From a virus, in IMG/VR virus record IMGVR_UViG_3300028844_005639: a DNA stretch of 64,000 bases, one strand, 5' to 3'. Both the position numbers and the translations under genes were made by a program. Positions 18,056-21,985 of the stretch are shown here, piece after piece. Position 1 is the stretch's first letter. Every line of letters begins with the position of its first letter. The notes below the pieces were generated by a model. The model was not told where the DNA came from. It saw nothing but the letters and a program-made list of their open reading frames with translations, and made no database searches.

Positions 18056-18127
18056 GAAACGAGTGGCAGTACTTTAGCCTGGCTGTGTTTACGAACCTCA
18101 CTCATTAATGCTTGCACTCTATTTAGC

Positions 18128-18200
18128 ACGAGAGGTAAGACTCAAACTTACAACCTTCGGTTTTGCAGACCACTGCCTACATCCCCTCGGCCACACTGAC
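18128..18200 (-). pseudogene. degenerate tRNA-like element (anticodon-loop-like CUGCAAA, GCA)
   Basis: The minus-sense sequence has a class-II-like D arm (UG-GCC-GAGGGGAUGUA-GGC), an anticodon-arm-like hairpin and a T-arm-like hairpin GUAAG-UUUGAGU-CUUAC. The T loop has U where C56 is expected. The flanking 7-mers GUCAGUG and CUCUCGU do not form an acceptor stem. Confidence 0.3.
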
Positions 18201-18247: not shown

Positions 18248-18360
18248 TATGTGCTTACCTAAATTGCTTCGTTAGCGACAATGACGGTCAGGGCCCTCTG
18301 TAGAGACGGCTATTCTAAACCACTTATTAATCGCTGTACATTTCATAATCGTACTATTAG

Positions 18361-18442
18361 TTGCGGGAGAGGGACTTGAACCCTCGAGGCCAAAGGCGGT
18401 GGGTTATGAGCCCACTGAGATACCAACTTCTCGCACCCCGCA
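18361..18442 (-). tRNA. tRNA with anticodon CAU (Met or Ile2 type) and an unusually long 13-nt variable region
   Basis: Manual fold: acceptor UGCGGGG/UCCCGCA (6 Watson-Crick pairs plus G.U), anticodon arm GUGGG-CUCAUAA-CCCAC, variable CGCCUUUGGCCUC (GCC/GGC mini-stem), T arm GAGGG-UUCAAGU-CCCUC, discriminator A, no encoded CCA. The junction between acceptor and D stem is irregular: either a 3-nt linker or a C.A pair in the D stem. Confidence 0.65.
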
Positions 18443-18592: not shown

Positions 18593-18762
18593 ATTTTGTG
18601 AGATAGCAGAGACTTAAACTCCGCAAGGTTAAAGGGTTACAATCTCGACCAGTATCTTTTTATATCCCGTATGAAAAACGGTAGTATTCTACCCTTTTCG
18701 GTTATTTTTAGGCGCATCACAGGAAAAATGGGCGCAAATCGGTATTATCCTACCGTTTTTGA

Positions 18763-18842
18763 ACTCTAGGTGGGAGTCGAACTCACAACCTAAAAGAGCA
18801 TGAGCCTAAATCATGTGCGTGAACCAATTTCGCCACACGCCT
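18763..18842 (-). pseudogene. degenerate tRNA-like element (anticodon loop UUUAGGC, UAG/Leu-like)
   Basis: UG-GCG-AAAUUGGUUCA-CGC D arm, very similar to bacterial tRNA-Leu. Perfect anticodon stem CAUGA/UCAUG. T arm GUGAG-UUCGACU-CCCAC with one A.C mismatch. The flanking 7-mers AGGCGUG and CUAGAGU cannot pair. UGGCGAAAU is duplicated 16 nt upstream. Confidence 0.35.
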
Positions 18843-20077: not shown

Positions 20078-20104
20078 ATAAGTAATTTAAAATTAGAAAA
20101 TTAG

Positions 20105-20176
20105 CAGTCTTAGAAGGATTTGAACCCTCATTTCCTGGTCCGTAGCCAGGTGTTTTGTCCGTTAAACTATGGGACT
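20105..20176 (-). tRNA. tRNA-Arg (anticodon ACG) with two adjacent C.A mismatches in the acceptor stem
   Basis: AGUCCCA-UA-GUUU-AACGGACA-AAAC-A-CCUGG-CUACGGA-CCAGG-AAAU-GAGGG-UUCAAAU-CCUUC-UAAGACU-G. D, anticodon and T arms are canonical and A20 is present. Acceptor pairs 5:68 and 6:67 are C.A. Confidence 0.75.
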
Positions 20177-20182
20177 AATTAG

Positions 20183-20257
20183 GGAGTCTATTGGGATTCG
20201 AATCCAAGTTACCTGCACTACAAGCAGGCGTGTTAGACCAATTACACTATAGACTCC
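20183..20257 (-). tRNA. tRNA with anticodon GUA (Tyr codons) on a tRNA-His-type body (G-1:C73, short variable loop)
   Basis: G(-1)-GAGUCUA-U-A-GUGU-AAUUGGUCUA-ACAC-G-CCUGC-UUGUAGU-GCAGG-UAAC-UUGGA-UUCGAAU-CCCAA-UAGACUC-C. This gives an 8-bp acceptor including G-1:C73, with A53.C61 in the T stem. Confidence 0.75.
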
Positions 20258-20265
20258 ATGTGCTT

Positions 20266-20631
20266 TTAATAAGGAGTGATGATCCGCTTAAGCTTGTAAT
20301 GCCGTGCAAGTTTAATCATACTTTCTGTGCCTTTACTTCGGCCGTTCCAAAATATGATAGCTCTTTGGGCATAGCGAGCCATTTCACCATTCCGTATTAT
20401 ACCTCCTGCTTTTGGAAACGTATTCCAATCAGCGGGAAATTGTGTCAGTTTGTAATCTTTCTCCTTTGCGTACTGCTCTCCAAGTTTGTCAGCTCCGCGT
20501 GCGGTACCACTAACAATCTCAATAGTGTGAGTTTTCTTGAACTTACGTAAAGCTTTGTCACAAACTTGTTTAAGCAGGGAGTAGTCTTCAAAATCTCTGC
20601 CCCCTGCGATGATCACTTTTAAGTGTTTCAT
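20266..20631 (-). CDS. SLOG-superfamily protein (DUF2493/YspA-like)
   Basis: VIIAGGRDF...IVSGTARGADKLGEQYA...FPADW......AGGIRNGEM......AIIFWNGRSKGTESMI matches the DUF2493 (SLOG) pattern common in phages. Confidence 0.6.
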   Translation of the reverse strand: MKHLKVIIAGGRDFEDYSLLKQVCDKALRKFKKTHTIEIVSGTARGADKLGEQYAKEKDYKLTQFPADWNTFPKAGGIIRNGEMARYAQRAIIFWNGRSKGTESMIKLARHYKLKRIITPY

Positions 20632-21665
20632 TTGTCTAGTCTTACTCCGATGAATACGGGGAACCTAGGTAACCCATCATCAGTCTCTTCAAAGTATCGA
20701 ATCTCTGCAGTCTGGCCTATGATGCTATGATCGAGAAGTAATTCTCTTCGTGCAGTATGAGACATTTTCGGCGTAGCCTTGAAAGATTTACCGTTGTGTT
20801 CACATACTACGACAGCTTGGTCAGGTCTCGCCTCCATAGGAACTAGTCCTACAATCTTACATGCGAGATCTTTGAAGTCCTTATACTTTAGCAAATTCGA
20901 AGAACGGCCGTTAAGTTTATATCCTGCAGTTCCCCATCGAACGATACTACCTTCATAACCATCGTTTAAGAATTTTGCATGATAGTGATCAAGCTCTTCT
21001 TTACTATTAATTAGGTACGTAGGAACTATTTCAACCGTGTCGTAATCTTCTACAATTTCTGCCAGTCGTTTATACCGAGTAAAGAAAGGCTCATCAGAGA
21101 CCAAGTCGTATACATGAAACTTCACGCTTTCAGACTCTTCACCACGATACTTTTTGATGAGCTTCATATTCTCTTGGAATGAAATTCCATGAGCGTAAAG
21201 CTCCCCATCTAGAATCTGATGCGTAGAATCCATGATGTCATTAACGATGTGGTCCATGGTTTCAATTTTTCCGCCAGTGCGAGATGTCAAAGAACGTTTG
21301 CTGTACAATGCACGCATACCATCTAATTTAGGCTGTACGAAACATGGGTACTCTACTTTTTTAACTTCCTTATCGAAAGACTTAGCTAACATCGGAAGAA
21401 TTACTGTGGTATTCTCAGCTTCTTCTTGCGTTCGAAAGTAATCTTCCTTCAGCTTCTCGGTTATTTTAGAGTTCATTTGTAGAACAGCTTGCTCCGTACC
21501 AGTAGTCTCGTTCGCTCGACCAACGTTTTTAGGCGTTGCGGTTTTACGACTTTCAGCATGTTTTCCATCGATGAGGCCATACTGTTCGATAATTTCGTCT
21601 CCTGTAGTGGAGATCTTCCAGACTCTAATTTTTCCTTTAGAGTCTTTCTTAAATAGTTGTGTCAT
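20628..21665 (-). CDS. lig: ATP-dependent DNA ligase
   Basis: Motif I VQPKLDGMRAL, motif IV DGYEGSIVRW, motif V NLLKYKDFKD. I place the start at Met39 of the track ORF (MTQLFKKDSKGKIRVW, ATG 21665-21663). The upstream extension overlaps the opposite-strand ORF. Confidence 0.85.
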   Translation of the reverse strand: MTQLFKKDSKGKIRVWKISTTGDEIIEQYGLIDGKHAESRKTATPKNVGRANETTGTEQAVLQMNSKITEKLKEDYFRTQEEAENTTVILPMLAKSFDKEVKKVEYPCFVQPKLDGMRALYSKRSLTSRTGGKIETMDHIVNDIMDSTHQILDGELYAHGISFQENMKLIKKYRGEESESVKFHVYDLVSDEPFFTRYKRLAEIVEDYDTVEIVPTYLINSKEELDHYHAKFLNDGYEGSIVRWGTAGYKLNGRSSNLLKYKDFKDLACKIVGLVPMEARPDQAVVVCEHNGKSFKATPKMSHTARRELLLDHSIIGQTAEIRYFEETDDGLPRFPVFIGVRLDK

Positions 21666-21709
21666 TAAATTTAGGTTTAAAGGATTATAAAAAACTTGTA
21701 CCTTAGTAC

Positions 21710-21985
21710 ATGCAAAAATTGATTTTTCTTCTATTGTTTCTAACAGCCTGCTTTCCAGAAGGTTATATAACAACCCCAAGCCCCTCTATAGAGAACTCTG
21801 GAGACAGAACTTTATGGTCCTGCAGTTCAAGACCTGGAGTAGTCCTTGAAAAAATAGAAACAGATAGGTACATGCTTATGCGTAGATCCATATCAGGAGA
21901 GTGGAAGAATATTCGAGAGTATTATATTCCCGACAATAGTTTACCAGCTTCTGCTTACGGTATTCTGAATTGTTTTAACGACTAG
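21710..21985 (+). CDS. small predicted lipoprotein encoded on the opposite strand inside the minus-strand block
   Basis: MQKLIFLLLFLTAC is a signal peptide with a lipobox (L-T-A-C). The ORF fills the gap between the ligase start and the deaminase stop and overlaps the deaminase 3' end by 11 nt (convergent). Confidence 0.4.
   Translation: MQKLIFLLLFLTACFPEGYITTPSPSIENSGDRTLWSCSSRPGVVLEKIETDRYMLMRRSISGEWKNIREYYIPDNSLPASAYGILNCFND

Follow-up and report, generated by a model that had tools for sequence, protein, structure and literature searches.

The window analyzed here is the whole stretch of viral DNA, with a length of 64,000 nucleotides. On its minus strand it carries a tRNA gene with the anticodon GUA, which is called the GUA tRNA below. 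The gene was identified as a match to Rfam RF00005 at 20183-20256 (59.5 bits, E 2.5e-10, model positions 1-71 of 71), above the gathering threshold of 29 bits and covering a full-length cloverleaf. ARAGORN called it as tRNA-Tyr (gta) at 20182-20256. The original prediction had placed a tRNA at 20183-20257, and these coordinates are supported by both programs; the strand, which had been left unstated, is the minus strand. The features at the locus are as follows.

20266..20631, minus strand: SLOG-family gene of 121 aa, directly upstream of the tRNA, used as synteny anchor (Pfam PF10686, 59.8 bits)
20257, minus strand: G-1, an additional encoded G at the 5' end, able to pair with C73 (sequence and MFE fold)
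20183..20256, minus strand: tRNA body from G1 (20256) to the discriminator C73 (20183) (Rfam RF00005, ARAGORN)
20218..20221, minus strand: anticodon G34 (20221), U35 (20220) and A36 (20219), followed by G37 (20218) (loop sequence UUGUAGU)
20195..20203, minus strand: T loop bounded by the mismatch A53 (20203). C61 (20195) (Rfam alignment, ARAGORN brackets)
20177..20182, minus strand: 3' trailer CUAAUU, a 6-nt spacer before the next tRNA (sequence)
20105..20176, minus strand: neighbouring tRNA-Arg(ACG) with the mismatches C5.A68 and C6.A67 (Rfam 55.9 bits and ARAGORN)

The GUA tRNA is a class I tRNA with a variable region of 4 nt. Its acceptor stem consists of seven Watson-Crick pairs (GAGUCUA/UAGACUC, with G1-C72), its D stem of four and its anticodon stem of five, and 20 of the 21 stem pairs are Watson-Crick, A53.C61 being the sole exception. 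In the MFE fold the acceptor helix is carried on through G-1:C73 (z = -3.9 compared with shuffles). The CCA end is not encoded, as the genome reads C-U-A at this point. Hence Rfam, ARAGORN and the MFE fold together recovered all parts of the predicted molecule, namely the class I cloverleaf, the extra G pairing with C73, the loop UUGUAGU, the anticodon GUA and G37. The mismatch A53.C61 is also present, but its use as a sign of decay did not hold. Since isolated stem mismatches occur frequently among related phage tRNAs (13 in 14 genes of L073 and 22 in 22 genes of G003), A53.C61 alone says little on decay.

An origin of the GUA tRNA as a tandem duplicate of the neighbouring tRNA-Arg was rejected, as the similarity of the two is ordinary and 28% of the pairs of different isotype score equally high. 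A scan for promoters and terminators beside the GUA tRNA, performed without Bacteroidota and phage promoter models, gave nothing useful.

The nucleotide-metabolism, ligase and rII-like genes of the window match phage families. Its ribonucleotide reductase is nearest to those of crAss-like phages and one cyanophage (about 46-50% identity), and its GroEL to those of Chitinophagales and Crocinitomix, both Bacteroidota (60-62%). The phage is an uncultured, crAss-like phage. The two ORFs that flank the tRNA pair, together with the next ORF, are letter-identical on at least 8 contigs (JGI, Logan and ENA; up to 92,086 bases long), and therefore belong to a real, recurrent, circulating phage. The ligase cluster is present on 11 contig records. 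The ligase ORF (20628-21779, minus strand) is listed from a TTG start with 383 aa. It probably starts at Met39, judging from the members of the same cluster, which have 345 or 381 aa, and from relatives that align from about residue 38. Such a start would leave roughly 300 non-coding bases upstream (21666-21974).

No homologous GUA tRNA was found in IMG/VR, the GenBank phages or 401 Bacteroidota genomes. Exact-pattern scans of IMG/VR were made with the anticodon arm (positions 36 and 37 set to N), with the D arm, and with the T arm joined to the acceptor; they gave matches in coding sequences or none. BLAST of the GUA tRNA gave only sub-significant matches in the GenBank phages and nothing meaningful in the 401 Bacteroidota genomes. 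The top match in the GenBank phages, the tRNA-His of Xanthomonas phage XbC2, had an E of 0.7 and was not counted as evidence. For a spurious ORF on the plus strand, overlapping the anticodon, an exact look-up gave no match.

Histidine and tyrosine identity marks

Identity positions were surveyed in a non-redundant set of 171 tRNAs (8 His and 163 non-His calls) taken from 4 related phages and about 33 Bacteroidota genomes. Every one of the 8 tRNA-His has C73, compared with only two of the 163 non-His calls, which are the GUA tRNA itself and one odd tRNA-Lys. G at position -1 was observed in 5/8 tRNA-His (4/5 from Bacteroidota and 1/3 from phages) compared with 13/163 non-His calls (8%). Apart from the GUA tRNA, the two marks were found together in tRNA-His only, with the exception of one odd Lys. 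The loop UUGUGGU is carried by five of the eight tRNA-His (four from Bacteroidota and one from phage G003), and the loop UUGUAGU of the GUA tRNA differs from it at a single position, by a G36-to-A transition. The GUA tRNA has G37, whereas 51 of the 55 tRNAs with A36 in the survey carry A37. Sequence and survey together confirmed that the histidine identity marks G-1 and C73 are joined to a tyrosine anticodon.

The histidine-type body that had been proposed could be upheld for position -1, C73 and the context of the anticodon loop, but not for the rest of the molecule. Global identity of the GUA tRNA to His tRNAs is 57-62%, which is not above that to Lys, Val, Asn and Gln tRNAs. A His covariance model (R2, 7 sequences) gave 54.7 bits for the GUA tRNA and up to 61.6 bits for non-His class I tRNAs, so that this model is not isotype-specific. 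Because both nearest-neighbour identity and the His covariance model fail to discriminate isotypes, the claim of a His-like body was dropped. By the same two measures the body is generic, and the detailed parallel that had been drawn to the layout of E. coli tRNA-His was overstated. With bacterial tRNA-His the GUA tRNA shares the encoded G-1, C73, G1-C72, the class I build and U33-G34-U35. G37 is also common to it and many bacterial tRNA-His, as in the 34GUGG37 of T. thermophilus (PMC4357726). It differs from them in A36, by which the anticodon GUG is absent and UAY instead of CAY is read, and in A53.C61.

Some further tRNAs in the survey genomes are unusual. The tRNA-His of phages G003 (L055:1652-1727) and G002 (L048:1500-1573), both complete crAss-like genomes and more distant than L073, keep C73 and GUG and have T at -1. 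An encoded G-1, normally required by bacterial HisRS, would be missing from them. Judging from these two crAss-like phages, an encoded G-1 is not obligatory in the phage group. In the Crocinitomix MAG G006, a tRNA-Lys(CTT) bears both G-1 and C73 (L230), and contig C9 (L226/L308) of the same MAG carries an array of 8 tRNAs with unusual genes, including a 'Stop-TTA', a second Tyr and a second His. The array is possibly the tRNA island of a mobile element or prophage. In phage G002, another class I tRNA is read as Tyr(gta) by ARAGORN (L044:1501-1575). It has G73 and a Met/Ile-like body, the register of its anticodon stem is ambiguous (UGU is possible), and it is isolated and distant from the tRNA array of G002.

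For the comparison with tyrosine tRNAs, 20 tRNA-Tyr from Bacteroidota genomes and the tRNA-Tyr of phage L073 were used as 21 proper tRNA-Tyr. All 21 are class II with a length of 82-86 nt, A73, A37 and the loop CUGUAA[A/C]. The anticodon arm of Bacteroidota tRNA-Tyr is highly conserved; a 15-base pattern of it matched 25/31 genomes and gave 0 control matches. A Tyr covariance model (R1) built from 14 Bacteroidota tRNA-Tyr gave 36.9 bits for the GUA tRNA, compared with 95-105 bits for held-out Bacteroidota Tyr and 77.8 bits for the L073 Tyr. Genuine tRNA-His scored 35.9-43.8 bits on this model, and the GUA tRNA lies in the same non-Tyr range. The check with covariance models, in which a normal tRNA-Tyr score had been named beforehand as counting against the prediction, hence gave a background score with the Tyr model.

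With bacterial class II tRNA-Tyr the GUA tRNA has the anticodon GUA (with U35) and G1-C72 in common. It lacks the long variable arm, has C73 in place of A73, and carries U32, G37 and U38 where tRNA-Tyr has C32, A37 and A38. On every structural test run, the GUA tRNA is not a tyrosine tRNA by build. This agrees with the expectation that it is not built like bacterial tRNA-Tyr, given the 36.9 bits on the Tyr model against 78-105 bits for proper tRNA-Tyr and the class II build and A73 of all of the latter.

Synteny with phage L073 and the tRNA array

The closest relative found is phage L073, with a ligase identity of 66%. The SLOG gene of the window is 62% identical to L073:5444-5827, and in L073 a tRNA-His(GUG) follows 29 nt after that ORF. 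The junctions of the GUA tRNA and of the L073 tRNA-His are the same, with ACAUG|G at the 5' end and C72-C73-C-UAA at the 3' end. The module of SLOG gene and tRNA is found upstream of the ligase in L073 but on its downstream side in the window, with the adjacency of SLOG gene and tRNA retained. The comparison with related phages that had been suggested for the gene thus showed a syntenic tRNA-His(GUG) in the same slot. The bodies of the two tRNAs are only about 55% identical, and for this reason they may, on sequence grounds, represent a positional replacement rather than strict orthologues. Among 14 IMG/VR and 48 metagenome loci with relatives of the ligase, tRNAs were found nearby in L073 only, and the SLOG homologue L325 in IMG/VR has no adjoining tRNA.

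In L073 the order is Pro-Asp-Gly-Gln, SLOG gene and His, ligase and a dATP/dGTP-diphosphohydrolase-like ORF, and Leu-Leu-Ser-Thr-Tyr-Met-Asn-Lys-Trp. The good tRNA genes left in the window according to ARAGORN are only the GUA tRNA, the tRNA-Arg(ACG) and an initiator-like tRNA-Met. In addition, the following remnants were identified.

18127..18200, minus strand: tRNA relic with a Cys-like 5' half and a Trp 3' half, acceptor stem broken (Rfam 35.4 bits)
18597..18683, minus strand: approximate positional counterpart of the L073 class II tRNA-Tyr, a T-arm-like remnant (alignment, weak evidence)
18769..18836, minus strand: tRNA relic with a Leu(UAG)-like 5' part and a 3' end like that of L073 tRNA-Thr (Rfam 27.9 bits, below gathering)

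In the relic at 18127-18200, six non-canonical stem positions were marked by Rfam, and its halves could be aligned to the Trp of L073 and the Cys of G002. A GCA anticodon arm lies within the Cys-like 5' half, and the 3' half is near-identical to the L073 tRNA-Trp. From this alignment, the relic looks like a deletion between adjacent tRNA genes at a common anticodon-arm sequence. The T stem of the relic at 18769-18836 reads GUGAG compared with GUGGG in L073 Thr, and this G-to-A change gives an A.C mismatch. Polarized against L073, this change is, like G36A, of the G-to-A type. A conserved block begins exactly after the L073 tRNA-Tyr. At 18597-18683, neither Rfam (E<=1) nor ARAGORN called a tRNA. 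Taken from these alignments, the tRNA array appears to be in the process of being lost: three adjoining tRNAs are broken relics and the slot of the class II tRNA-Tyr is degraded.

The initiator-like tRNA-Met is found in both phages (18360-18442, minus strand, in the window and L073:8378-8461). It reads UGCGGGG...CCCGCAA, with U1-A72 and three G-C pairs that close the anticodon stem. An insertion of 11-13 nt in its variable region is shared by the two phages, inside a conserved block with 79% identity, and the Rfam score is 46 bits.

In the three tRNAs called by ARAGORN in the window (18360-18442, 20104-20176 and 20182-20256), all four non-GU stem mismatches are A.C (4/4, counted post hoc), compared with 3/13, 2/22 and 1/7 of such mismatches in three related phages. 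In this small post hoc sample, the A.C mismatches are consistent with a bias towards G-to-A (or T-to-C) changes.

Origin and possible function of the GUA tRNA

That the GUA tRNA is a tRNA-His by origin is well supported, and a high probability is assigned to it, because it has C73, G-1 and the loop context U32, U33, G37 and U38 and occupies the same slot as the tRNA-His(GUG) of L073. Of the three options that had been offered for the gene, a His gene with a G36-to-A change obtained the strongest new support, from the synteny with L073, the shared junctions and the UUGUGGU loops. The GUA tRNA is most probably (with a rough probability of 0.55) a mutated tRNA-His in which G36-to-A changed GUG to GUA, and which would still be of the HisRS type and a weak decoder of UAY. 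Because the stems are nearly perfect, whereas a gene long without function should resemble the collapsed neighbours, the change must be very recent or selection must still act on the gene. From the sequence context, the favoured view is that G36A arose recently and is neutral or slightly deleterious, since the tRNA array is eroding and a strong activity would damage the phage proteins. The ORFs of the window contain 721 Tyr codons (4.1%) and 1.9% His; this codon usage is unremarkable and not decisive.

As a mutated tRNA-His, the GUA tRNA would be co-transcribed with the SLOG gene and the tRNA-Arg. RNase P leaves G-1 on bacterial pre-tRNA-His. Here it would cut one base early, owing to the pairing of G-1 with C73, and this would give the 8-bp acceptor helix that HisRS recognizes. 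For HisRS, G-1:C73 is the major determinant and the anticodon a minor one, and microhelices with that pair are charged (PMC9976931). Charging by HisRS is expected for the same reason, and HisRS would be the likeliest synthetase for the GUA tRNA, with an efficiency lowered about ten-fold. In the T. thermophilus complex, the mutation K397Q, which affects the contact to G36, costs about 9-fold (PMC4357726). Among the determinants for TyrRS, A73 and U35 are critical ones, the former being conserved across all domains (PMC9976931). TyrRS should reject the GUA tRNA, in which A73 and the long variable arm are missing. The expected charging and RNase P behaviour are drawn by analogy from E. coli and T. 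thermophilus and not from the Bacteroidota host. MiaA needs A37 for i6A and TrmD needs G36-G37. On the ribosome the GUA tRNA would pair with UAY, and would do so poorly, given A36-G37, the weak A36-U pair and a presumably unmodified G37. The net effect would be at most a low level of Tyr-to-His misreading, and the phage would lose its own supply of tRNA-His.

The GUA tRNA belongs with tRNA genes of a known kind, those with a shifted anticodon or dual identity, among which a His/Tyr case from a phage would be new. Like the GUA tRNA, tRNA-ProX of Streptomyces and Kitasatospora combines identity elements for one amino acid with an anticodon for a different one, and for both the host synthetase is expected to charge despite the wrong anticodon (PMC11415595). 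However, tRNA-ProX is conserved across species, has A33 and A15-A48 and is often accompanied by a dedicated ProRSx, whereas the GUA tRNA is found in one genome with no partner enzyme seen in the window. In the yeast mitochondrial tRNA-Thr(UAG), which is derived from tRNA-His (PMC3113583), an altered anticodon region likewise reads the codons of another amino acid. There, G-1 was lost, ThrRS co-evolved and a true codon reassignment resulted; the GUA tRNA keeps G-1:C73, and His identity would be expected. Phage tRNAs that escape defence systems (PMC10264068), such as the tRNA-Tyr of T5 against retron-Eco7 (PMC11555353), resemble it in the unusual anticodon loop and the Tyr anticodon. They keep their cognate identity and a normal isotype architecture, in contrast to the mismatch of anticodon and identity in the GUA tRNA.

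Several other explanations were weighed against a mutated tRNA-His. The intact, high-scoring cloverleaf next to decayed tRNAs, the presence of the full major HisRS identity set (PMC9976931), the natural precedent of tRNA-ProX in Streptomyces (PMC11415595) and the flanking genes that are identical on 8 contigs from three sources would fit an intact tRNA of HisRS identity that is kept under selection. It would be charged by HisRS via G-1:C73 and insert His at UAY codons during infection, as a deliberate or regulated mistranslation, in one variant as a replacement of the decayed tRNA-Tyr, or have another selected role that depends on GUA. Such a tRNA is nevertheless unlikely: the only syntenic relative, L073, has GUG, a proteome-wide exchange of Tyr for His at the 721 Tyr codons would strike the own proteins of the phage, a loop with A36-G37 is poor for codons that start with U, as reflected by A37 in 51/55 of the A36 tRNAs, and no dedicated synthetase was seen within the window. 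Charging by the host TyrRS through the GUA anticodon, as proposed for a working tyrosine tRNA recruited from tRNA-His in place of the lost class II tRNA-Tyr, is quite unlikely. A73 is a Tyr determinant in all domains and the GUA tRNA has C73 and G-1, which favour HisRS; it also lacks the long variable arm and A37, and its Tyr covariance score is at background. That tRNA-His took another identity in yeast mitochondria (PMC3113583) speaks for recruitment, but this switch required the loss of G-1, which is still encoded here. Recruitment would also agree with the degraded slot of the class II tRNA-Tyr, with U35 as a critical TyrRS determinant and G1-C72 of the bacterial Tyr type (PMC9976931), and with the usefulness of a phage tRNA-Tyr against defences that degrade tRNA-Tyr (PMC11555353).

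As a single base separates the loop from a normal His loop, A36 might come from an error in assembly or sequencing, or be a minority allele in a population that carries a normal tRNA-His(GUG). This is improbable, because one-base consensus errors are rare in an assembled region of high complexity, the flanking proteins are letter-identical on 8 contigs, which indicates a stable sequence, and the A.C mismatch in the T stem and the two in the tRNA-Arg are of the same kind, suggesting real mutations. It is very improbable that the RNA acts outside translation, as a decoy or cleavage-resistant stand-in for host tRNAs with GUN anticodons that are hit by anticodon nucleases, for which correct charging would be unneeded. 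Phage tRNAs with altered anticodon loops do evade tRNA-targeting defences (PMC10264068), tRNA-Tyr is a known target of defence (PMC11555353) and the loop with A36-G37 is unusual, but the published cases rescue translation and hence need correct charging, and nothing at the GUA tRNA points to a nuclease system or a decoy role. The least probable explanation is an A-to-inosine (or read-as-G) editing that restores I53-C61 and a GUI anticodon reading CAY, and thereby a normal tRNA-His. All four non-GU mismatches are A.C, and with A36 and A53 read as G a canonical tRNA-His would result. Against this, at least one A.C mismatch sits in a dead relic and is simply G-to-A compared with L073, and the four events are few and were counted post hoc. 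To our knowledge, editing of this kind in stems or at position 36 is not known in bacteria or phages.

We know of natural dual-identity tRNAs from a few bacteria only and of none from a virus. If a tRNA inserting His at UAY codons were maintained here, no earlier His/Tyr case of natural dual identity would be on record, and it would also be the first virus-encoded tRNA that mistranslates. If GUA is fixed and the RNA is made, the gene would be a natural test of the tRNA identity rules. Should the change be no more than a fresh mutation, the gene would be of practical value, as pipelines would annotate the gene as tRNA-Tyr by its anticodon, almost certainly with the wrong amino acid. Because HisRS reads the end of the acceptor helix and not the anticodon, one transition makes a tRNA-His a potential Tyr-to-His mistranslator. 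The locus would further represent the tRNA array of a crAss-like phage caught in the middle of its loss, by deletions between adjacent tRNA genes and by point changes, which informs on the turnover of phage tRNA repertoires.
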